Assembly: GCA_002793855.1 (NCBI GenBank)
Contig: PFET01000012.1
Span: 6,222 to 70,221 of the forward strand
Origin: Candidatus Uhrbacteria bacterium CG10_big_fil_rev_8_21_14_0_10_48_11
GTDB taxonomy: Bacteria; Patescibacteriota; Patescibacteriia; GWA2-46-9
Direction: 5' to 3'
Length of the DNA: 64,000 nucleotides
In this document: piece after piece, positions 2,893 through 49,575 of the stretch
How the letters are laid out: each line of letters begins with the position of its first letter
How positions within the stretch are numbered: the first letter of the stretch is position 1
Made by a program: the position numbers and the translations under genes
Notes under the pieces: model-generated
The model's database searches: none
What the model saw: only the letters and a program-made list of their open reading frames with translations
Told to the model about the DNA's origin: nothing

Positions 2893-3906
2893 TTAAATTG
2901 TTTTACCTACCAATTCTGCCATTTCTACCAGTCTATTGGCATAGCCCCACTCGTTGTCATACCAAGCCATTAGTTTCACAAGGTCACCATCAACGACTTT
3001 TGTTAGGCCAAGATCAACTATGGCAGAGTGGCTGTTGCCAATAATATCGTGGGATACTAACGGTTCGTCAGTAACGTCAAGAATCCCCTTCCAGCGCTTT
3101 TCCGCGGCCGCTTTTCGAAAGAGTTCATTAACGGCTTCAACCGTGGTTGGTTTTTTTACCACAAAGGTAAAGTCGGTAAGTGAGCCAACTGGGGTAGGAA
3201 CCCGAACCGAAAGTCCGTCAAATTTGTCGGTCAGTTCAGGAATTGTCTTGGTGGTAGCCACGGCAGCCCCCGTTGTTGTCGGCACGATATTGACAGCGGC
3301 AGCGCGTGCACGGCGCAAATCTTTATGCAGTGGTGGCGTCGGCCCATCAACCAAATTTTGTTCTGCAGTGTAGGAGTGAATAGTGGTGATAGCGCCCTTG
3401 CTAATACCCAACGCTTCTTCGAGGACCGCGGTTACCGGACCAACGCAGTTTGTTGTACAGGAGGCGTTCGAAACCATGGCGTCACTATCGTACTGACCAT
3501 GATTAACACCAAGCAGATAAGTTTTTGTTTCGCCGCCTTTGGTTGGCGCCGAGACAACGACACGCTTTGCGCCAGCTGTCAGGTGCGCGTTTGCAGCGTC
3601 ATCCCGAGTAAAACGACCGGTGCACTCTAGCACCACATCAACTTCATGCTTTCCCCATGGCAAAGTTGCCGGATCTTTCTCGGCAAAAACCTGGTACGAA
3701 ATACCGTCGACAATCAACTCGTGTTCGCTGTGGGTGATAGAGAAGGGCGCTCTTCCGTACACTGAGTCGTATTTTAAGAGTTGCGCCAAGGTTTCTGTGT
3801 CAGTTAAATCGTTGATAGCGACAATCTTAATAGCTGGATTGTTGAGCGCGATTTTAAATGCCGCCCGCCCGATTCTACCAAAACCGTTAATGGCAACCTT
3901 CAACAT
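2893..3906 (-). CDS. gap: Glyceraldehyde-3-phosphate dehydrogenase
   Basis: NGFGRIGR Rossmann motif, ASCTTNC active-site motif, 337 aa. Confidence 0.95.
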   Translation of the reverse strand: MLKVAINGFGRIGRAAFKIALNNPAIKIVAINDLTDTETLAQLLKYDSVYGRAPFSITHSEHELIVDGISYQVFAEKDPATLPWGKHEVDVVLECTGRFTRDDAANAHLTAGAKRVVVSAPTKGGETKTYLLGVNHGQYDSDAMVSNASCTTNCVGPVTAVLEEALGISKGAITTIHSYTAEQNLVDGPTPPLHKDLRRARAAAVNIVPTTTGAAVATTKTIPELTDKFDGLSVRVPTPVGSLTDFTFVVKKPTTVEAVNELFRKAAAEKRWKGILDVTDEPLVSHDIIGNSHSAIVDLGLTKVVDGDLVKLMAWYDNEWGYANRLVEMAELVGKTI

Positions 3907-3925
3907 AACGTTAACCTTGGGGTGA

Positions 3926-4525
3926 TTACTGTCCTATTTCGTAGCGCGTGAAGCGCTTGATTTGTACATTCTCCCCCACTTTTGCCGTTATAGCAACCAG
4001 AAGGTCTTTTATTGTCTGCGATTCTTCTTTGATAGAGGACTGAGCAAGAAGCGCTTCTGCTTCTACAAACTTAGCAAAACTTCCCTCTAAAATCTTATCA
4101 ATAATTGTGGCATCTTTGCCGGCCAACTTACCCTCCTCCTCAAGACGCTCTTTTGCCAAACTAAGTTCTTTTGCTTTCACCTCTTCGGGAATGTCCTCGA
4201 CTGATAGGTAACGTGGATTTGTTGCGGCTACCTGCAAAGCAATGTCATGTACAAACGACTGAAAGTCTTCGTTGCGAGCGACAAAGTCGGTTTCGCAAGC
4301 AACTTCAATCAACACGCCAACACGTCCGTTCCCGTGAACGTAGGCGTGTACGATGCCCTCACTGGTCTCTCTGTCTTGCTTCTTCAATGCTTTGGCTTGT
4401 CCTCGTTTCTTCAAAAGCTCAAGCGCTTTTGCCTGGTCACCACCAGCTTCTTCGAGTGCTTTATGAATGTCGGAAATGCCCGCACCGGTTTCTCGGCGCA
4501 AGGCAACAATGGTTTCTTTTGTCAT
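3926..4525 (-). CDS. tsf: Elongation factor Ts (short form)
   Basis: N-terminal UBA-like LRxxTGAGxxDxKKAL motif, 199 aa, directly downstream of rpsB. Confidence 0.88.
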   Translation of the reverse strand: MTKETIVALRRETGAGISDIHKALEEAGGDQAKALELLKKRGQAKALKKQDRETSEGIVHAYVHGNGRVGVLIEVACETDFVARNEDFQSFVHDIALQVAATNPRYLSVEDIPEEVKAKELSLAKERLEEEGKLAGKDATIIDKILEGSFAKFVEAEALLAQSSIKEESQTIKDLLVAITAKVGENVQIKRFTRYEIGQ

Positions 4526-9046: not shown

Positions 9047-10618
9047 TCAGGGCACAGGATCGTTTGATCGTCGGTTCTTGGTCGTGACCAATCGCACAAG
9101 CTCAAGACGGTTTATGGCGTCAACGTAGGCCAACGCCGACGCCATTACCACATCGGTGTGATTACCCCTTCCGCGGACAGCAATCTCACCCGTCCGGATC
9201 AGTACACTGACCTCGCCAAGTGCATCGGTGCCGCCAGTCAATCCTTTCGCCTGATAGCCCTCCAGCACCGAATAAACATAAGTACTTTTTTTGATGGCCT
9301 CGTAGCAGGCGTCAATGAGGCCATCGCCCGTCGCTGTGGCAGACTGCGATTTACCATCAATACTAATGGTCACCGCTACCTCAGGGTCTCCGTGGAGGCT
9401 TGCGACAACCCGTACATCCTCCAGCACGAACCGCTGACTGGCATCGGACTCATCACCAATCGCCACCACAATCAGATCTTCCGAAAAGATCTGGCCCTTT
9501 TTGTCAGCCAGCAACTTAAAGCGAGTAAATGCATCGCTAAAGTTGATAACCCTGGGATCAAATCCCAACTCGCGCAATGCCTTACTAAAGGCATGTCGGC
9601 CGGAATGCTTACCAAGCACCAGCGTGTTGCTGATCCGACCGACATCTTCAGGCCGCATGATCTCGTAGGTCCTGACGTTCTTGAGCACGCCATCCTGATG
9701 AATGCCCGCCTCGTGCGCGAACGCATTCGCGCCAACGATTGGTTTCGTCGGTGCAATCGTCATCCCGATCATTTTCGAAAGTGTCTGACTCGCCAGATAG
9801 ATCTGCTTCGCATTGACACGGGTGTTAATGACAAAGTGATCGTATCGAGTATTGAGCGCCATCACCACCTCTTCCAGCGCGGTATTGCCGGCTCGCTCAC
9901 CGATCCCATTGATGGTGCACTCAACCTGCCGCGCTCCGCCCTCGACCGCGGCCAAGGAATTGGCAACCGCCAGCCCCAGGTCGTTGTGACAGTGCGTGCT
10001 CCAGATGACCTGATCCGCGCTCTCCGTGCGCGCACGCAGGGTCTCGAACATCTGCCGAATTTTATCAGGTACTCCGTAGCCCGTGGTGTCGGGAACGTTG
10101 CAGACGCGGGCGCCAGCACGAATTACCTCGCCAAAGACCTGGCACAGGTAGTCGGTGTCGCTGCGCGACGCGTCCTCTGCCGAGAACTCAATGTAATCGA
10201 CGTACCTGCTGGCACGCTCGACCGCCCAAGCCGCGGCGTCAATGACCTCCTGCCGGCTCATCCCCAGCTTGTACCGCAAATGGATGTCCGAGGTCGCGAT
10301 AAAGACATGGATCCCTGGGGACTTGGCGCCATCCACTGCTCTCAACGCCGTCTCGATATCGGCCTCGCGAGTGCGAGCCAAGCTCAAGACTACGGGCCCG
10401 TCGACGGCACGAGCTACCGCCTTCACAGACTCTAAATCCCCCGGAGACGCAGCCGCAAAGCCAGCTTCTATGACGTCGACTCCGAGCGCCTCAAGCTGCC
10501 GCGCAACGGCGAGCTTCTCATCAACGTTCATCGTGCAGCCCGGCGACTGCTCTCCGTCACGTAGGGTCGTATCGAAGATCCGAACCCAGTCATTACTTCC
10601 GTCCCTGTATTTTCCCAT
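9047..10618 (-). CDS. leuA: 2-isopropylmalate synthase (LeuA family, with C-terminal regulatory domain); GC about 58-60%
   Basis: [30 protein letters not shown], and a C-terminal GDGLIDA LeuA_dimer domain; 523 aa. GC and GC3 are clearly higher than in the flanking genes. Confidence 0.85.
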
Positions 10619-12000: not shown

Positions 12001-12879
12001 CTAAAAACGAATCTGGTCGGCTTGTCCTCGCATGAAGTTGTCAGCGTTGACGATGTCGACATTCGGCACTACTAAAACATCAGTCACTCCTAAAATGGTA
12101 TTGTAGAGATTTATAGTAACGGGGCGTTGCTCCCCCGCCTTTAATTGGTCAAGAGCAAGGGCTTGAGCAGCTACAGCACGTGACCCCTGCAGAAGTACCA
12201 CCGTAAAACCGGTCGACCAAAATCCATTAGCGCTCTCGTTTGCTACGGTAAATGACACCTGCCCGGGCAAACTCAAACCGGCACTATCAACCCCCCGACC
12301 AGAGGTAAATGAAACACCGCTAACTACAAAGTGCGGCTTCAAGGCGTTGAAAGCGTCAGGAATATGCAATCGCTGCCACTTGATGTTGTTTATACGAATC
12401 GGCAAATTCGCACTCGGTGAAGTAGCGGCACCAACGCTAACCGCAAATCGCTCCTCGTTGTTTAATACCAAAACCGTATCACTACCATTACTACCATCGC
12501 CAACCTGATACGTTACCCACGCTACCCAATTTGGATTTGGATTAAAAAATTTAACCAACGCGTCATATTTGCCATTGCGACCACTGCCTGCCAGTACCGT
12601 GCCGGTTGAAGTACTGATGGGATGCGGTGAAATAATACGATGCCAGTTCGCCGTATCAACACTGGTTGAGAGCGCGTACAGCACCTGTTGGTCTGCGACG
12701 CGAGAAAATACGTACAAATTAAGGAGCTGATAACCAGAATACAACAACACAACCGCTTCAACCGCCACCACAATACCGATGACCATAAGGCGAAATCGAC
12801 TATGATTCGTTATCCAAAATTGAGCCCAACGAAACCACGAGTCGTTCAGTACCGGGTTTACGTTTTCAGTGTCACGCAT
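12001..12879 (-). CDS. Hypothetical protein with N-terminal TM anchor and extracytoplasmic domain
   Basis: Single N-terminal hydrophobic helix (MVIGIVVAVEAVVLLY); no recognisable motif. Confidence 0.45.
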   Translation of the reverse strand: MRDTENVNPVLNDSWFRWAQFWITNHSRFRLMVIGIVVAVEAVVLLYSGYQLLNLYVFSRVADQQVLYALSTSVDTANWHRIISPHPISTSTGTVLAGSGRNGKYDALVKFFNPNPNWVAWVTYQVGDGSNGSDTVLVLNNEERFAVSVGAATSPSANLPIRINNIKWQRLHIPDAFNALKPHFVVSGVSFTSGRGVDSAGLSLPGQVSFTVANESANGFWSTGFTVVLLQGSRAVAAQALALDQLKAGEQRPVTINLYNTILGVTDVLVVPNVDIVNADNFMRGQADQIRF

Positions 12880-12938
12880 ATAGATTTTAGTGTAGCATAT
12901 CTGTAATAAAACCGTAGCGTGGCAAACCCTAAAAGACG

Positions 12939-12967
12939 TTTACCGCTAACCACATTCGTGCTACACT
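12939..12967 (+). promoter_or_regulatory. Promoter for gyrB (TTTACC-17-TACACT)
   Basis: 17-nt spacer; located 32 nt upstream of the gyrB ATG. Confidence 0.4.
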
Positions 12968-12998
12968 AAGCCCAGATTTTACCGACTAACCCACATCC

Positions 12999-15047
12999 AT
13001 GGCGAAAGAAAAATCGCAAGCAGCAAAGAAAGCTCAGGGAGCAAACGACTACACCGCAAAACAAATTACCGTCCTAGAAGGTCTCGACCCGGTCCGCAAA
13101 CGACCGGGTATGTATATCGGCAACACAGCCTCTGAAGGGCTACATCACCTTATCTGGGAAGTCGTCGATAACGGCATTGACGAGGCCATGGCCGGTTTTG
13201 CCACCGAGGTAACCGTGCGACTACTCCCCGGCAACGAGGTAGAGGTTACAGACAACGGCCGCGGTATTCCGGTTGATATTCATAAGCAGACAAAAAAATC
13301 GGCACTAGAAACAGTGCTTACTACTTTACACGCCGGTGGTAAATTCGGCGATGGTGGTTATAAGGTATCTGGTGGGCTGCACGGTGTTGGTGTCTCGGTG
13401 GTGAATGCCCTCTCTGTTCACCTGCGGGCCGAGGTAAAACGTGATGGCAAAGTGTACGCTCAAGAATACGAACGCGGCAAAGCAACCGGAAAAGTAAAAG
13501 AAGTAGGCAAAACCTCAAAACAGGACACTGGTACTGTCATTCGCTTTCGTCCGGACGATACTATTTTTACGGTTACCGAATTTTCTCTAAAAGAAGTTAT
13601 CAGTCACCTCCGGCAGCAAGCATATCTCACCAAGGGGGTGATGATTACAATCATTGATGATCGCTCGCCAGCAAACAAACAAGAAGACCCCTGCGCGCGT
13701 ACCTACCGCTTCTACTTTGAAGGTGGTGTCGCCTCCTACGTCCGGCACCTCAACCACCTCAAAAACCCAAAGCACGAAAACATTTTCTATATTGAAAAAG
13801 AAGAAGAAGAAGAAGTTCGTGTTGAGGTTGGGCTTCAATACAACGAAGAGTACCAGGAGACATTATTCGCTTTTGCTAACAACATTCATAACCCCGAAGG
13901 CGGTACGCACCTTGCCGGCTTTCGAACGGCACTGACCCGCACACTCAACGCCTACGCGCGTCGCAAGGGGTTGCTCAAAGAAAAAGACGAAAACCTAACG
14001 GGCGACGATGTGCGCGAAGGACTGACAGCGGTTATTAGTGTAAAGGTAAAGGAACCGCAGTTTGAAGGACAGACCAAGGCAAAACTTGGAAACGCTGAAG
14101 TGCGCTCTATTGTCGATACGGTTTTTGGTGACGCCTTCTCGGCGTTTCTCGAAGAACACCCACGGGATGCCGAGGCTATCATCAGTAAGGTTGCACTAGC
14201 TGCCCAAGCACGTCTGGCCGCACGCGCCGCGAGGGCATCTGTGCTGCGCAAAGGCGCACTCGAAGGCTTTATGCTTCCTGGTAAACTTGCCGACTGTTCC
14301 AGTAAAGACTCCTCACGGTCAGAGATATTTATCGTCGAGGGTGATAGTGCTGGCGGCAGTGCCAAGCAAGGTCGCAATCGAGAGTTCCAAGCTATCTTGC
14401 CACTACGTGGAAAAATTTTGAACGTTGAAAAAGCACGCCTTGACAAAATGCTCGCCAACAATGAAATTAAATCGCTTATCATTGCGCTAGGTACCAACGT
14501 CGGCGAACAGTTCGATATCGAAAAACTTCGCTACGACCGCATTGTTATTATGACCGATGCCGATGTCGACGGCGCGCACATTCGTACTTTGCTCCTCACG
14601 CTCTTCTACCGCTACTTCCCCGAGCTGGTACGGCAAGGTCACGTCTACATTGCGCAACCGCCACTTTATAAAATTAGTAAAGGGAAAGAATCTTACTACG
14701 CTTACAGTGATACTGAGCTTGATAACATTCGCAAAGAATTAAACGCTGAAAGTGTAGCCAAAAAATCTGCTAAAAAGCAAACGAAGAAAAAAGGTTCAGA
14801 TGACGAGGCGACGGAGGAAACTGAAATTAACCTTAACATTCAGCGCTACAAAGGTTTGGGTGAAATGAATGCCGATCAGCTCTGGGAAACAACCATGGAT
14901 CCCGACCGACGTATATTGAAAAAAGTTGCGGTAGACGATGCCGAAAAAGCGGATGCTACCTTTACCGTCTTGATGGGCAGCGAGGTTGCCCCGCGTAAAC
15001 ACTTCATTCAAACACACGCAAAAGCCGTAAAGAATTTGGACGTTTAA
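12999..15047 (+). CDS. gyrB: DNA gyrase subunit B
   Basis: GHKL ATPase (LHAGGKFGDGGYKVSGGLHGVGVSVVNALS), Toprim EGDSAGG, PLRGKILNVEKA; 682 aa. Confidence 0.95.
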   Translation: MAKEKSQAAKKAQGANDYTAKQITVLEGLDPVRKRPGMYIGNTASEGLHHLIWEVVDNGIDEAMAGFATEVTVRLLPGNEVEVTDNGRGIPVDIHKQTKKSALETVLTTLHAGGKFGDGGYKVSGGLHGVGVSVVNALSVHLRAEVKRDGKVYAQEYERGKATGKVKEVGKTSKQDTGTVIRFRPDDTIFTVTEFSLKEVISHLRQQAYLTKGVMITIIDDRSPANKQEDPCARTYRFYFEGGVASYVRHLNHLKNPKHENIFYIEKEEEEEVRVEVGLQYNEEYQETLFAFANNIHNPEGGTHLAGFRTALTRTLNAYARRKGLLKEKDENLTGDDVREGLTAVISVKVKEPQFEGQTKAKLGNAEVRSIVDTVFGDAFSAFLEEHPRDAEAIISKVALAAQARLAARAARASVLRKGALEGFMLPGKLADCSSKDSSRSEIFIVEGDSAGGSAKQGRNREFQAILPLRGKILNVEKARLDKMLANNEIKSLIIALGTNVGEQFDIEKLRYDRIVIMTDADVDGAHIRTLLLTLFYRYFPELVRQGHVYIAQPPLYKISKGKESYYAYSDTELDNIRKELNAESVAKKSAKKQTKKKGSDDEATEETEINLNIQRYKGLGEMNADQLWETTMDPDRRILKKVAVDDAEKADATFTVLMGSEVAPRKHFIQTHAKAVKNLDV

Positions 15048-24864: not shown

Positions 24865-25422
24865 TCATTCAATCCGCTCCCCTGCAAGGTGCGCAAATTC
24901 GTAGGCATCTACCATGGCTAGCCAGCTTGCCTCAGTGACGCTTCTCGCTGTCGCCACGGTTCGGAAGTCCCAGCCATGGAACGTCCAGTCCACGACAACC
25001 TTGACCCGTGCCGCAGAGCCGCCACTACCAACCTTAAAAACGTGGTAATCACCGAGCTCCAAGCCCAAAGCTTTGACTTCAGCAACTTTGTTCATTGCGT
25101 TATCAAGCGCATTGATGGGCCCGTCTCCACGACCGGCCACATGGTCTTCTTGCCCTGTTTCCAGACGAAGCATGATTGTTGCTTCGGCAGGCTCTGCAGT
25201 TCCATCATCACCGCTTCGATGTAATTCACATACTCGGTACCACTCGACAAAAACAAAGGAGCAATTTGATCCATTCTCTCGAAACTGCGCCATTGCAATC
25301 GAAACAGCCTCCTCGCGTACGTATTCGCCATTCATTAAAAAAACCGCGATACGTACACCCCTTTCTCCGCTAAGATCCAAAAGACCCAACTCGCTGAGTT
25401 TCGCGAAATCAATTTTTTTCAT
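24865..25422 (-). CDS. Stand-alone LeuA regulatory (LeuA_dimer-like) domain protein, 185 aa
   Basis: GRGDGPINALDNAMNKV and VGSGGSAARVKVVVD...VTEASWLAMVDAYEF align with the C-terminal R-domain of the leuA product in this window ([15 protein letters not shown]...[11 protein letters not shown]...[13 protein letters not shown]). Strong GGGGAGGAAGGG Shine-Dalgarno sequence. Confidence 0.55.
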   Translation of the reverse strand: MKKIDFAKLSELGLLDLSGERGVRIAVFLMNGEYVREEAVSIAMAQFRENGSNCSFVFVEWYRVCELHRSGDDGTAEPAEATIMLRLETGQEDHVAGRGDGPINALDNAMNKVAEVKALGLELGDYHVFKVGSGGSAARVKVVVDWTFHGWDFRTVATARSVTEASWLAMVDAYEFAHLAGERIE

Positions 25423-26984: not shown

Positions 26985-28793
26985 TTAGTTCTGGCGAGTA
27001 GCAATTTGTGCTTGTACTCGAGAAATAAAATCAGCCAAGGTAATTTGCAATAACTCTTTTTCTCCGCGAACCCGCACAGAGAGTTGTGTACCGTCATCCC
27101 ATTTTCCCTCTTTAGGCGCCTCTTTGTCGCCAATCACCAATGCGTACGGCAGTTTCTCCGAAGCTGTTCGCCGTATCTTATTACCAACCGTGTCACCACT
27201 TTGATCAATGCTTACTCGTATACCTTCCGCTTCAAATTTTTCTGCAAGCATCAAGACGGCATCAAGATGCCCTTCGCCAACTGGCACCAAGCCAACCTGC
27301 ACCGGTGAAAGCCAAACCGGAAATGCTCCGGCAAAGTGCTCGATGATAATACCAATGAAGCGCTCCATTGAGCCGTAAATAACTCGATGGATGGCAACCG
27401 GCGTTTGTTTTTTTCCCTCTGCGTCAGTGTAATGCAAGTTAAAACGGCGCGGTTGCTGGAAGTCTAACTGAATGGTGCCCATCTGCCACTCCCTACCAAG
27501 GATGTCGCGCATAAGAATATCCACCTTCGGCCCATAGAAGGCACCATCACCATCAAGGACGGTAAATGCCTTACCACTCTTCAGTAGTATTTCTTTTAGT
27601 GTTCCCTCAGCACGATCCCACGTCTCACTATCTCCCATAAACTTTTCCGGCCGCGTTCCCATTCGGTACGAGTACTTGAGTCCAAAAATAGAGTAGAAGC
27701 GATCGACAATTTCAAAGACCCTAGCGTACTCATCACCGATCATATCCTCAGAAACAAAAATATGCGCATCGTCTTGGCGAAATTCACGAACCCTAAACAA
27801 CCCATTTAACGTACCCGAAAGTTCATTGCGATGAATCGGATCAGTGTCCGAAAAACGTAGTGGTAAATCACGATAGCTTCTTCCGCGCGAACCAAACACC
27901 ACCATGGCGTTTGGACAGTTCATGGCTTTAACCCCATACTCTTCCTCTTCGTCGGTTTTTGCCACAAACATATCCCCCCAATAATGTTCGCAATGACCAG
28001 AAGTGATGTAGAGTTCACGCTTATTAAGAAGCGGAGAAACAATTTCTTGGTAGCCGCGACGTCGATGCTCATCTCGCCAAAACTGGATAAGTTCGTTGTA
28101 GAGAACAACTCCCTTCGGTAGCCAGTACGGCATCCCAGGGGCGGTTTCGTGAAACATAAATAAATCAAGCTCTTGACCAAGTTTCCGGTGGTCACGCTTC
28201 TTTGCCTCTTCTATCATTGCAAGATGTTGAGAAAGGTCGCGTTCGGTTTCAAAAGCTACCCCATAGACACGTTGCAGCATTTTGTTCTTTTCGCTTCCTC
28301 TCCAGTACGCACCGGCAAGCTTAGTCAACTTGAACGCGCCTATTGCTTCGGTGCTTTTTACATGAGGTCCTCGACACAAATCGACAAAAGCCCCCGTTTC
28401 GTAAACTGAGGTAATCTCCTTTGCAGCCGGATCGATATCAAAAGACTCATCGGCCTCTACTTTTGTTGTCCCTTTATCGCGCAGCGCCTCTAATAGCTCA
28501 ACCTTATAGGGCTGCTTTTTCTCCTTAAAAAAGGCAATTGCTTCTCCAATTGGCATTTCTCTACGAACAAACGCTTCGTTTCGTTTTTTAATCTCCTCCA
28601 TTTTTTCTTCAATAGTCGACAGATTGTCGACCGAAAGCGACACGGGAAGATCAACGTCGTAGTAAAAACCATTTTCTACAACGGGACCGACACCAAATTG
28701 CGCGGTCGGGTAAAGCTCTTGCAATGCGGCGGCAAGTAGGTGCGCTGCTGAGTGGCGCATTGTTTCGACGGCTGAAAGTTTTGGTTCATTCAT
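26985..28793 (-). CDS. thrS: Threonyl-tRNA synthetase
   Basis: Class II motifs and anticodon-binding domain; 602 aa. Confidence 0.95.
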   Translation of the reverse strand: MNEPKLSAVETMRHSAAHLLAAALQELYPTAQFGVGPVVENGFYYDVDLPVSLSVDNLSTIEEKMEEIKKRNEAFVRREMPIGEAIAFFKEKKQPYKVELLEALRDKGTTKVEADESFDIDPAAKEITSVYETGAFVDLCRGPHVKSTEAIGAFKLTKLAGAYWRGSEKNKMLQRVYGVAFETERDLSQHLAMIEEAKKRDHRKLGQELDLFMFHETAPGMPYWLPKGVVLYNELIQFWRDEHRRRGYQEIVSPLLNKRELYITSGHCEHYWGDMFVAKTDEEEEYGVKAMNCPNAMVVFGSRGRSYRDLPLRFSDTDPIHRNELSGTLNGLFRVREFRQDDAHIFVSEDMIGDEYARVFEIVDRFYSIFGLKYSYRMGTRPEKFMGDSETWDRAEGTLKEILLKSGKAFTVLDGDGAFYGPKVDILMRDILGREWQMGTIQLDFQQPRRFNLHYTDAEGKKQTPVAIHRVIYGSMERFIGIIIEHFAGAFPVWLSPVQVGLVPVGEGHLDAVLMLAEKFEAEGIRVSIDQSGDTVGNKIRRTASEKLPYALVIGDKEAPKEGKWDDGTQLSVRVRGEKELLQITLADFISRVQAQIATRQN

Positions 28794-28803
28794 AGCGTAA
28801 AAT

Positions 28804-28965
28804 TAAAAAAACCCAAAATCACAAATCGTGATTTTGGGACTTCGGTAAAATACCAAAGCGGTTCCACCCAAATTCCCCAACTGGGGCACTCATACAAACA
28901 GGCTTAGTCCTAGCGGAACGCATATACTGCGTACGGCGTTGGTAGCGCCGTCAGTTACCTGACTA
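28804..28965 (-). promoter_or_regulatory. T-box riboswitch leader (Thr specifier ACC) with antiterminator and terminator
   Basis: The T-box sequence AATTTGGGTGGAACCGC resembles the AAUUAGGGUGGUACCGCG consensus. The specifier hairpin ACGGCG-cuACCAa-CGCCGU carries an ACC codon followed by A. Antiterminator helices are UUUGGG/CCCAAA and GCUUUGG/CCGAAGU. The terminator CCCAAAATCAC-gattt-GTGATTTTGGG plus U7 shares CCCAAA with the antiterminator. Confidence 0.7.
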
Positions 28966-28966
28966 C

Positions 28967-28995
28967 ACTATACGCCATCACCAATGCAGCGTCAA
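28967..28995 (-). promoter_or_regulatory. Promoter TTGACG-17-TATAGT for the thrS leader
   Basis: Near-consensus hexamers with a 17-nt spacer. Confidence 0.55.
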
Positions 28996-28996
28996 G

Positions 28997-30124
28997 CTAC
29001 TGAAAGCGCAGCTCTATTTTGCTCGGCAGCCTTGGTAAATGCTGCTGCCAGTAAGGAATAAGCTGCACCTCAACACTATCTATGCCTTCAAAGTGCGACA
29101 AAAATTGCTTGACCTCTGTCGGTGTCGCGCCTACAAAGTTGATTGGTGAGAAAACTGAGCTTGTGGTATCAAGCGCTGCGCCTACGGTAGCGATACCGCT
29201 AATGAGCGCTGTCCGCGCAATGGGATCATAGTCAGCGATAGTGTACTGCCAGTTATTCCCAACCATGCTCACTTGTCCACCGGCAGCATTTTTTACCACA
29301 TCGTTTAGCGCCTCTTTGCTAAAGGCGACTGCAATAACCCTTACGCGTAGTGTAGCCGTCAACGCCGCAGCACTATCCCCTGTCTTGCTCGAATAGTCTT
29401 CACTTAACGCGGTCGTAATAAAATCTGCATCGGTAAGATCACCACTAGCAACATGCGCACCGTCCGTACGCTTAACCGCATCAAGGGCACGACGCAACAA
29501 CGTCTGTTTAGCATTCTCAATGTCTTGATCGGTAACCTCGCGCACTACCGCACCACCGCGCACCATAGCAACCGAAGAGGTGGCGTAGATGTCCTTTTGT
29601 AAATTTGGCGACAAGCCTGGTATCGTAAAGTGGCTCGGCCCGACGAGGTAGCTATCTTCTGAACCGTCCGCTTCGACAACCGCACTAACCTGCCCACCGG
29701 CGGGAACCCGGACAGCTTGTGTCAAACGGAACAGGATATTGTCGGGTGTCAGCAATCGCGTTGTTTCAACCAATGGCTGCGCACGGTCACTAGTATTAAT
29801 AATAGTTACGATACCTCCAGCTTTCGCGGTTGGCTCAGGATTTTGCTGTAATAAAAACGTGTCTGATTCGTCCTTTGTGGTTTCTAAAAAGGTCGCAGAA
29901 ATGGCACCGTCTGGCAGCGTCTTTCCTATTGTTTCTTCTGCTAGCGTTGCCTTGTACGAAACATCCCGTTCAACCGGATGACGATGCACAACAATAACCG
30001 CTCGTGAAAGCGTTGTGTACGCAATAAACCCAAGCAAAATAACTGTTAACACCACGAAAGAAATCGCAATGTTTCTTAGTAGTTTCGCTTTCGTTGGTAG
30101 TAGTTCTAAATCCCCCATAGACAT
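28997..30124 (-). CDS. Hypothetical membrane-anchored protein with extracytoplasmic domain (375 aa)
   Basis: N-terminal TM helix (IAISFVVLTVILLGFIAYTTL); no motif recognised. Confidence 0.45.
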   Translation of the reverse strand: MSMGDLELLPTKAKLLRNIAISFVVLTVILLGFIAYTTLSRAVIVVHRHPVERDVSYKATLAEETIGKTLPDGAISATFLETTKDESDTFLLQQNPEPTAKAGGIVTIINTSDRAQPLVETTRLLTPDNILFRLTQAVRVPAGGQVSAVVEADGSEDSYLVGPSHFTIPGLSPNLQKDIYATSSVAMVRGGAVVREVTDQDIENAKQTLLRRALDAVKRTDGAHVASGDLTDADFITTALSEDYSSKTGDSAAALTATLRVRVIAVAFSKEALNDVVKNAAGGQVSMVGNNWQYTIADYDPIARTALISGIATVGAALDTTSSVFSPINFVGATPTEVKQFLSHFEGIDSVEVQLIPYWQQHLPRLPSKIELRFQ

Positions 30125-41561: not shown

Positions 41562-42761
41562 CTATTCGTCGTAGAGACGAATGAGCTCGTTGTACTTGTT
41601 GATTCTCTCGTTTCTCGGAGCCCCAATTTTAACCGCATCCGCGCTGCCGGCCTTTGCTAGCTCGATAATAAAGGGATCATCCGTCTCTCCTGAACGATGA
41701 GAGACAATAGTGGTGAGTTTATGCTGGCGAGCGATTTCTAGCGCCCTACACGACTCACTTACCGTTCCTACCTGATTCGGCTTAATGATAACCCCGCTAA
41801 TGCAAGCACGCTCGGCAAACCCCTCAATACGCTTTGGGTTTGTTACCGTAAGATCGTCACCAACAACCGAAAGATTAGGCAATGCCTCCAAAAGAGCGGC
41901 AAACCCCTCAGCGTCATCTTCAGCAAAAGGATCCTCGATACTAATAAGCCTAGGGATTTCGGTAGTAAATTTCTTGTACACTTCAACCATTTCCCCCGCA
42001 TTTATTGTTTTGCCACCAAATCGGTAACTCCCGTCATGATAAAAACTAGAAGCTGCGGCATCAAGCGCCAAGGATAAGCGATCCGAAAGCGACGACTCTT
42101 CTATGAGCGAGCTAAGTATTTTTAATGGTTCTTCATTGTTTTTAAAATCTACACAGTAGCCAGCTTCGTCACCAACCGGCAGTGCTTCCAGCTTACGGGA
42201 AGTGCGGAGCTGTTCCCCCAAAGTTCGGTAGAGAGCCACCAGTTCTTGTGTTAGTTCGGCGTAGGATATTTTTGGAGCAGCCACGAGCATATACTCTTGA
42301 ATAGCAAGATTGTTAGCAGCATGCTCGCCACCATTAATGACATTACTGTAAATGCGCGGACGAACGGCACCACTAACGTGGGCAAAAAACTCTTCGTGCA
42401 GTACCTCTGAAAGTTGCCTTGACTGTTCGGCGGCTAACGCGCGAGAGAGGGCAACAGAAATCGCAAGCGTAATGTTGCCGCCAAGTATAGCCTTGGTATC
42501 TGTTGTATCAATCCCTAGCAGTAGCTCGTCAACTTCATGAACGGAGCCGTACTCTCTGCCGAGCATTGCCTTTCGAAGCGCCTCAATTGACTGTTCGGCT
42601 TCATGGTACGAAAACACTTTTGCCTCTGCACTACCACGACTTTTACCTGAGGGCACCGCAGCACGATGAGAAACACGAGCGCCGTCGAGTGCTACAACTT
42701 CGATGGTCGGCTCACCACGAGAGTCAAAAATTTTTCTGACGCGTAGATCGTCTAACTTCAT
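41562..42761 (-). CDS. eno: Enolase
   Basis: SHRSGETDD, IIKPNQVGT and NGGEHA motifs; 399 aa. Confidence 0.95.
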   Translation of the reverse strand: MKLDDLRVRKIFDSRGEPTIEVVALDGARVSHRAAVPSGKSRGSAEAKVFSYHEAEQSIEALRKAMLGREYGSVHEVDELLLGIDTTDTKAILGGNITLAISVALSRALAAEQSRQLSEVLHEEFFAHVSGAVRPRIYSNVINGGEHAANNLAIQEYMLVAAPKISYAELTQELVALYRTLGEQLRTSRKLEALPVGDEAGYCVDFKNNEEPLKILSSLIEESSLSDRLSLALDAAASSFYHDGSYRFGGKTINAGEMVEVYKKFTTEIPRLISIEDPFAEDDAEGFAALLEALPNLSVVGDDLTVTNPKRIEGFAERACISGVIIKPNQVGTVSESCRALEIARQHKLTTIVSHRSGETDDPFIIELAKAGSADAVKIGAPRNERINKYNELIRLYDE

Positions 42762-49225: not shown

Positions 49226-49263
49226 AATTAACGAACAAAAAGAAAACCACTTCGACGTGGTAC
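49226..49263 (-). terminator. Intrinsic terminator (CCACTTCGACG-tggta-CGTCGAAGTGG plus T-run) after hup
   Basis: 11-bp stem; TTTTCTTTTT follows on the minus strand. Confidence 0.75.
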
Positions 49264-49293
49264 GTCGAAGTGGTTTTCGCCAAAAAACTAGCT

Positions 49294-49575
49294 TTAAAGG
49301 ACAGCGTCCTTCGCGGCTTTAGCGACGCGGAACTTGACTACCGTCTTTGCCGGAATCTGAATTTCCTCGCCGGTTGCCGGGTTGCGCCCCATACGGGCGT
49401 TCCGGTGAACCTTTACCAGCTTCCCGATGCCAGGCACCAGGAACTCTCCGTTGACCTTAACTTCGCGGTACGCGAGGTCAGTGTAGGCCTCTACGAACGC
49501 AACGACCTCTTTCTTGCTCATACCGGTCTTCTCGGCGAGCGCCTGGAGGACTTGCGATTTTGTCATCTTCGCCAT
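49294..49575 (-). CDS. hup: DNA-binding protein HU
   Basis: 93 aa; the RNPxTG arm motif (GRNPATGEEIQIPA). Confidence 0.92.
   Translation of the reverse strand: MAKMTKSQVLQALAEKTGMSKKEVVAFVEAYTDLAYREVKVNGEFLVPGIGKLVKVHRNARMGRNPATGEEIQIPAKTVVKFRVAKAAKDAVL

Follow-up and report, generated by a model that had tools for sequence, protein, structure and literature searches.

A predicted compact T-box-type attenuator of thrS in Patescibacteria, with a four-way-junction decoding module

The thrS locus and its leader

The window examined here, a 64,000-nucleotide stretch of DNA, carries thrS on its minus strand, preceded by a leader element that spans minus-strand positions 28995..28805. The ORF of the encoded ligase scores 628.7 bits against TIGR00418 (cut-off 383.65). 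Its start codon lies at 28793, the AUG falling only 12 nt past the U-tract, and no ORF of 60 aa or more overlaps the leader on either strand. Between dnaE and the leader sits a 375-aa ORF (28997-30124, minus strand) that has no NCBIfam or Pfam match and that is kept at the dnaE/thrS position in the related loci L201, L202, L204, L206, and L208. The parts of the leader, and the gene that it precedes, are as follows.

28990..28995, minus strand: -35 box TTGACG (consensus scan)
28967..28972, minus strand: -10 box TATAGT (consensus scan), with a 17-nt spacer to the -35 box
28957..28961, minus strand: P0 5' strand CAGGU, which closes the decoding module and pairs with GCCUG at 28903-28899
28952..28956, minus strand: joiner AACUG (consensus RAYUG); A8, U10, and G11 invariant in eight leaders
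28933..28951, minus strand: P1 specifier hairpin ACGGCG-CUACCAA-CGCCGU, 6 bp and a 7-nt loop
28943-28941, minus strand: specifier ACC in the P1 loop, followed by a conserved A at 28940
28918..28932, minus strand: P2 hairpin ACGCA-GUAUA-UGCGU, abutting P1 with no spacer
28908..28917, minus strand: P3 hairpin UCC-GCUA-GGA, abutting P2 with no spacer
28904..28907, minus strand: joiner CUAA, invariant in eight leaders
28899..28903, minus strand: P0 3' strand GCCUG, covarying with the 5' strand
28891-28887 and 28874-28873, minus strand: purines flanking Stem III, GAGUG and AA (RRRxG...AA motif)
28886-28875, minus strand: Stem III CCCC-AGUU-GGGG (RF00230 alignment)
28874-28858, minus strand: T-box sequence AAUUUGGGUGGAACCGC (RF00230 alignment of the 3' half)
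28833..28872, minus strand: antiterminator (RF00230 alignment and our model R1)
within 28833..28872, minus strand: antiterminator helix A1, UUUGGG/CCCAAA
28866-28860, minus strand: T-box bulge UGGAACC, 7 nt, between A1 and A2
minus strand: antiterminator helix A2, GCUUUGGU/ACCGAAGU, with a G-U pair at the helix base
28838-28812, minus strand: terminator stem CCCAAAAUCACG/UGUGAUUUUGGG, 12 bp (terminator scan)
28811-28805, minus strand: U7 tract, directly after the terminator stem
26985..28793, minus strand: thrS, threonine--tRNA ligase, 602 aa (TIGR00418)

Much of this had been read from the sequence beforehand. The original prediction placed here a promoter TTGACG-17-TATAGT (28995-28967, sigma-70-like and recovered by consensus scan), a hairpin whose 7-nt loop CUACCAA shows the Thr codon ACC followed by A (28951-28933), and a T-box sequence with a UGGA bulge, and each of these is present. 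The antiterminator and terminator that it described as sharing CCCAAA, with a U7 tract, were also borne out, save that the terminator has 12 pairs and not 11. That description did not mention Stem III or the GAGUG and AA on either side of it.

Three promoter-like sites occur in 28000-30000, of which this one is the best, matching the consensus at 10/12 positions. The stop codon of the 375-aa ORF lies 2 nt upstream of it, and a TTGAC(G/C/T) box occupies the same relative place in L201, L202, L204, and L205. The P0 5' strand begins ~6 nt past the -10 box, both the promoter and the transcription start being predicted, and since P0 thus lies at the predicted start, its outer pairs are uncertain.

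Several neighboring genes merit a record of their own. Downstream of thrS, the ORF at 24865-25422 (minus strand) matches only the C-terminal LeuA_dimer part (24877-25257). At the same position L202 has a 536-aa HMGL/LeuA-like gene (12722-14332), and L201, like the window, has a LeuA_dimer-only protein, of 213 aa; a separate full-length leuA-like gene lies at 9047-10618 of the window. There are also two enolase-like genes, both on the minus strand: that at 41562-42761 is a clear enolase, while that at 392-1561 matches enolase domains weakly (~30-34 bits) and is therefore taken as a divergent paralogue.

Lineage and related leaders

That the lineage might be Patescibacteria-like had been raised beforehand as a possibility, and the threonyl-tRNA synthetase (ThrRS) bears this out. 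Among GTDB species representatives its closest relatives are Patescibacteria (Saccharibacteria, Nomurabacteria, Doudnabacteria, and others), at 54-61% identity, followed by Clostridia at ~50%. In a set of 5.8 billion clustered proteins the nearest ThrRS is 81% identical and labelled 'Patescibacteria group bacterium'; that set contains no exact copy, so the window's lineage itself lies outside the public sets searched. The gene content is typical for such genomes: glycolysis genes, rpsB-tsf, gyrB, nusG-rplKA, thyX, gatB, pheST, metG, mreB, and a PBP.

Leaders fetched by way of the ThrRS protein alone (L036, L201, L202, L204, L205, L206, L209, and L210) show how the element is conserved. All nine leaders, the window and these eight, carry the apical ACC-A loop and the UGGAACC bulge, and a terminator with a U-tract stands directly upstream of thrS in 8/8 of the relatives. 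The central proposal of the original prediction, a compact, ACC-specific, transcription-attenuating T-box on thrS, is supported by this conservation. The five closest relatives, whose ThrRS identity to the window runs from 81% (L201) through 72% (L202) and 68% (L204) to 67% (L205 and L206), share the window's leader and its gene order: dnaE, a hypothetical gene of ~375 aa, the leader, and thrS. Their apical loops read UUACCAC in L201, CUACCAA in L202 and L206, and CCACCAA in L204 and L205, and each of the five carries AAUUUGGGUGGAACC and a terminator with a U-run. L207 and L208 (ThrRS 64% and 63% identical, respectively) have no T-box upstream of thrS.

A second group, with the synteny dnaE-leader-thrS, comprises L036 (a Saccharibacteria GTDB representative), L209 (a 964-kb contig of GCA_037200925.1), and L210. 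Here a 4-bp stem carries the loop, and a K-turn-like internal loop lies below that stem. MAGs in which such leaders occur include GCA_037200925.1 (contig JBBCGO010000001.1), JGI Ga0376277_0000866, Ga0172368_10000161, and CAYQEU010000001.1. In these three and in L002, an H-type pseudoknot resembling Stem IIA/B follows Stem I, with a GCGUUA-like F-box in 3/4 of the pseudoknots, L036 and L209 included. The K-turn-like loop recurs more widely (L036, L209, L210, L001, L002, L006, and L010), for example as GAGAAC-GCA-GA...GGA-GUUCUC. All of these compact Patescibacteria leaders share with the window the regulated gene, the ACC-A loop, and the terminator logic, and most share the UGGAACC bulge, but they differ in having the K-turn-like loop below the specifier hairpin, and some lack Stem III.

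Two features of this wider set deserve separate mention. In L036 (3800-3945), L209 (9850-9990), L210 (4840-4990), and L096 (1640-1810), a purine-rich linker leads to A1 and leaves no room for Stem III, an element called indispensable in a 2020 review. In L001 (~3900-3960), L006 (3818-3863), and L010 (3657-3706), a variant bulge, CUGGG-ACGGAAAC-GUC, replaces GGG-UGGAACC-G, which puts C where the partner of tRNA A76 is expected and turns ACC into AAC; these leaders still have Stem I with its K-turn, an apical loop with ACC, and the overlap with the terminator. The ACGGAAAC bulge may hold the tRNA 3' end in a manner of its own.

In all, 32 Patescibacteria thrS loci (30 genome loci plus L207 and L208) were screened with a hairpin filter and with a covariance model built on the discriminator. 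At least 7/32 have compact leaders: L001, L002, L006, L010, L016, L036, and L041. A metagenome scan with the pattern CTACCAA N{45,75} GGTGGNACC proved too loose: at least 120 loci matched, and among those listed only L096 and L165 (ThrRS 45% identical) were real leaders. The comparative set is small, at 17 leaders, and five of these were found with sequence filters, namely L096 and L165 (pattern CTACCAA plus GGTGGNACC) and L001, L010, and L041 (ACC-loop hairpin filter). ACC-A is invariant in 16 leaders, 9/16 of which, the window included, were obtained without a filter on leader sequence.

Discriminator, switch, and decoding module

The 3' half of the leader is that of a familiar T-box, although database thresholds do not reveal it. 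Across the whole 64-kb window no Rfam family matches at gathering thresholds. The search with RF00230 that the original prediction had proposed thus yielded nothing at the gathering score, an outcome that the prediction had itself named as refuting; in E-value mode (601 nt), it returned a sub-threshold match at 28972..28832 on the minus strand, with 26.9 bits against a cut-off of 93 and an E-value of 4.8e-4. The alignment places Stem III, the T-box sequence, and the antiterminator at high posterior probability, including the predicted UGGA-bulged discriminator half, and it replaces 87 Stem I positions of the model by 3 nt, in line with the earlier remark that Stem I has no obvious distal platform. 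The match stays below threshold because the Stem I and Stem II positions of the model are absent from the leader, and this pattern, a discriminator half that aligns and a Stem I that is deleted, therefore indicates that the discriminator domain is canonical and that the decoding domain attached to it is not. The thrS leader would escape standard RNA annotation, and its relatives fare no better: on nine related compact leaders RF00230 reports 2/9, at 22-30 bits, and leaves 7/9 unreported at E <= 1.

The T-box core alone is weak evidence, because 0.83 chance matches to its 12-mer are expected in the window when one mismatch is allowed. The case therefore rests on the combination of elements and on their conservation in relatives. 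The flanks GAGUG...AA fit the RRRxG-Stem III-AA motif described for T-boxes (PMC7583486). Our own model R1 gives the window's antiterminator 53.4 bits, a score to be read in the knowledge that the window belongs to the R1 seed. Across 49 thrS leaders, drawn from Patescibacteria and from the canonical leaders of Clostridia, 89% of cells in A1 and A2 are paired and 14/14 pairs change on both sides; this alignment was fitted to the model and therefore leans toward the structure. The specifier, in turn, matches the regulated gene: the P1 loop shows ACC-A and the gene downstream is thrS, whence codon and gene agree.

The element appears to be confined to thrS within the window. Neither a regular expression nor model R1 finds another T-box in the 64 kb, and only 1/4 aminoacyl-tRNA synthetase loci has one, namely thrS as against pheST, metG, and a class II synthetase. 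Upstream of metG there is no T-box-type leader structure, only an HU-like gene and a terminator; the former is an HU/IHF-like gene of 93 aa (49294-49575, minus strand) between rsmI and metG, and the latter a strong terminator hairpin beside it (49226-49272). ARAGORN finds no tRNA gene in the window and no tRNA-Thr of the relatives in the fetched loci, the only hit being an unrelated tRNA-Thr(UGU) in L193; likewise tuf, often a neighbor of tRNA-Thr, has no tblastn match in any fetched locus.

The leader has two mutually exclusive folds, as A1 and the terminator share CCCAAA. When the decoding module and Stem III are kept fixed, the full leader reaches -54.0 kcal/mol in the terminator fold and -44.2 kcal/mol in the antiterminator fold. 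The terminator fold is thus ~10 kcal/mol more stable, whence the default state should be 'off' and the antiterminator should need an external stabilizer, as in characterized T-boxes. Alternatively, the RNA might work chiefly at the level of translation or mRNA stability. Every short-Stem-I T-box described so far is translational, and the thrS AUG follows just 12 nt after the U-tract. However, the 12-bp, GC-anchored stem with U7 is a textbook intrinsic terminator that recurs, with its U-run, in the relatives, and the alternative helix sequesters no Shine-Dalgarno-like sequence. A purely translational role is highly improbable because terminator and U-run are found in all members. Leader-peptide attenuation was considered and rejected, the sole AUG-started frame in the leader having a single Thr codon.

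The decoding half departs from all of this familiarity. The 179-nt leader folds better than its shuffles (z = -5.17, with 0/200 shuffles as good), and for the 63-nt decoding module the minimum-energy structure is a four-way junction of P0, P1, P2, and P3, at -22.4 kcal/mol and 49% of the ensemble. The original prediction had described a short Stem I only; it was right that there is no Stem II, and it missed P0 and the P2 and P3 hairpins that complete the junction. Covariation of P0 and P1 was assessed on 40-nt segments from eight leaders, anchored on the ACC loop and on the first CUAA after P2/P3. In P1, 100% of cells are paired and 6/6 pairs change on both sides; in P0 the figures are 85% and 4/5, with variants such as CAGGU/GCCUG, UUGGGU/GCCCAG, UUGGU/ACCAA, UAGC/GCUA, and UCAGA/UCUGA. 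None of 500 shuffles reaches the observed scores, and slid segments pair at 22-44% versus 93%.

P2 and P3 are plain hairpins with loops that are not conserved, and they were assessed through per-sequence folds with shuffles. RNAalifold, run on an unsupervised MAFFT alignment of decoding modules, recovered P1 alone because P2 and P3 vary in length. P2 is present at the same place in 9/9 leaders of the window's type, with stem sequences that are all different. RNAfold predicts P3 in 7/9 of them, with stems that include UCCU/AGGA, GUCCGC/GCGGAC, ACCCAG/CUGGGU, and GCC/GGC, and the same fraction, 7/9, has two hairpins between P1 and CUAA that abut each other and P1. In the window a stable hairpin, GUCAG-GUAA-CUGAC (28950-28963, minus strand; -7.1 kcal/mol), overlaps the P0 5' strand and the joiner and competes with P0; it is not conserved in relatives, and the competition could take place while the nascent RNA folds.

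Two further readings of the junction were rejected. As a K-turn or k-junction it would place the putative second sheared A in a covarying Watson-Crick pair (A-U in seven leaders, U-A in one). A pseudoknot of the P3 loop with the segment after CUAA fits only L205, while the P0 5'-end partner fits at least five sequences.

Could a long Stem I and platform have escaped notice, or be encoded further upstream, so that this is in truth an ordinary T-box of class I or class II? Its T-box core, its Stem III, and its antiterminator are canonical, after all, and Clostridia, with ThrRS ~50% identical, have canonical thrS T-boxes with the same UGGA bulge. Against this, the leader has neither a long Stem I carrying a distal double T-loop platform nor the room for one. 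Between the predicted start and A1 there are no more than ~88 nt, all of them taken up by four short helices; the 375-aa ORF reaches to 28997, 2 nt short of the -35 box; and the promoter position is conserved in relatives. The leader has no AGAGA / UGxRA T-loop pair and no GAA/AGUA S-turn internal loop, and where a canonical K-turn (GA motif) would be expected at the base of Stem I there are the joiners AACUG and CUAA instead. The deletion of the 87 Stem I positions by RF00230 points the same way. We regard a hidden canonical Stem I as barely credible, excluded in effect by the want of space and by the conserved promoter position.

The same missing parts invite a second doubt, namely that the leader is a decaying relic in which hairpin and U7 serve as a constitutive or leaky terminator and tRNA sensing has been lost. 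Parts regarded as essential are indeed missing, the genomes are reduced, and the closest T-box-free relatives, L207 and L208 (ThrRS 63-64%), have lost the leader altogether. Yet compensatory changes keep P0, P1, A1, and A2 paired across ThrRS identities of 45-81%, ACC-A and UGGAACC stay invariant amid drifting surroundings, and, absent an anti-termination signal, a constitutive 12-bp terminator would do harm in front of the sole copy of thrS seen. With ACC and UGGA invariant and the helices maintained by compensatory change, a relic is very unlikely.

Proposed mechanism and place among T-box RNAs

Sequence elements, mutually exclusive folds with their energies, covariation in P0, P1, A1, and A2, and conservation of ACC and UGGA are direct computational results, and the thrS leader is, by analogy with the characterized family, a genuine T-box-type attenuator in its predicted function. 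Very probably it is a tRNA-sensing transcription attenuator for thrS with a reduced architecture. From characterized T-boxes we infer the tRNA binding, the charge sensing, the transcription start, and the existence of some replacement for the elbow platform and the S-turn. The most likely mechanism, on the model of that family (PMC7583486), is anti-termination dependent on tRNA-Thr(GGU). Transcription would start at ~28960 from the TTGACG-17-TATAGT promoter, and the first ~63 nt would fold into the four-helix junction P0/P1/P2/P3, showing ACC in the apical 7-nt loop of P1. The anticodon of tRNA-Thr(GGU) would pair with ACC in a loop-loop contact. If the tRNA is uncharged, its 3' end, predicted to be UCCA, would pair with UGGA of the T-box bulge, a contact that the Stem III purines may buttress; helix A1 (UUUGGG/CCCAAA) would then be held and RNA polymerase would read into thrS. 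If the tRNA is charged, and so excluded, or absent, the 12-bp terminator would form and transcription would stop at U7. As speculation, the place of the elbow platform and the S-turn may be taken by the P2 and P3 hairpins and the conserved joiners.

In E. coli, too, thrS is under feedback control by an RNA hairpin that resembles an anticodon loop, the translational operator (PMC9976931), and a ThrRS-binding operator that mimics the anticodon arm has to be weighed here, the gene being thrS and the 7-nt P1 loop being shaped like an anticodon loop. The E. coli operator, however, mimics the anticodon and binds ThrRS, whereas the leader shows a codon together with a T-box for the tRNA 3' end. Its loop presents ACC and not a Thr anticodon (GGU/UGU/CGU), of which ThrRS reads G35 and U36; the hairpin lies ~150 nt from the AUG and not beside the ribosome-binding site; and the conserved T-box bulge and the antiterminator/terminator pair would be left unexplained. 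That the loop shows a codon excludes such an operator to the point of making it hardly conceivable.

Taken as a T-box-type attenuator, the leader is best understood against the RNAs already described. With canonical T-boxes (RF00230; B. subtilis tyrS in class I and glyQS in class II), it has in common the UGGN bulge, A1 and A2, the RRRxG...AA purines of Stem III, a competing intrinsic terminator with U-tract, and a gene-matching specifier with 'C' at its third position and a purine after it. Like glyQS, it is without the Stem II S-turn. Unlike them, it has no long Stem I, no elbow platform of AG bulge and distal loop, and no canonical K-turn, and its specifier lies in an apical 7-nt loop in place of the canonical internal loop. 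The class III ileS T-boxes of Actinobacteria (N. farcinica, M. tuberculosis; PMC7583486, PMC10482949) share the short, platform-less Stem I and the apical specifier. They differ in being translational, through Shine-Dalgarno sequestration, and isoleucine-specific with 5-6-nt loops, where the leader has a terminator, ACC, and 7 nt; they also require a Stem II S-turn and a IIA/B pseudoknot, whereas the leader has no S-turn, and leaders of the window's type have a four-way junction in place of the class III K-turn and pseudoknot.

Four classes have been published (PMC10482949). Class I combines Stem II with a long, platform-bearing Stem I; class II is glycine-specific, with a long Stem I and without Stem II; class III has a short Stem I with a 5-6-nt apical specifier loop and requires Stem II; and class IV has a Stem I of intermediate length. 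The thrS leader fits none of them: it combines an apical loop like that of class III, the absence of Stem II seen in class II, and a transcriptional platform. According to the 2020 review, transcriptional T-boxes generally require the elbow platform and short-Stem-I T-boxes are translational. The TBDB paper agrees on Stem I length, its short-Stem-I sequences having been gathered only from Actinobacteria. None of these papers mentions the phylum to which the leader belongs. In the searchable library, which leaves subscription journals outside, we found no paper that links T-boxes with Patescibacteria, CPR, Saccharibacteria, or TM7.

On balance, the arguments for and against a fifth architectural class in Patescibacteria are about equally weighted. 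Such a class would be transcriptional and would sense tRNA-Thr through a 7-nt apical loop and the discriminator domain, with neither platform nor S-turn and, in the window's lineage, on a four-way-junction scaffold. On the current picture, a transcriptional T-box needs a long Stem I whose elbow-binding platform captures the tRNA quickly, and one with a short Stem I is translational and depends on the Stem II S-turn (PMC7583486, PMC10482949). If the proposed class is real and works unaided, neither platform nor S-turn would be needed for co-transcriptional tRNA sensing. A covarying family with a short Stem I, no S-turn, and an intrinsic terminator makes the current rule testable with a ~155-nt RNA and one tRNA. 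Measured from start to U-tract, ~155 nt would also make this the smallest natural transcriptional T-box, and a natural T-box this minimal would lend itself to structural studies and to use as a compact sensor of tRNA charge. As Rfam-based annotation is blind to the element, the distribution of T-boxes across bacteria is likely under-counted. For the organisms themselves, the leader would mean that tRNA-sensing riboregulation persists in the ultra-small, host-dependent Patescibacteria.
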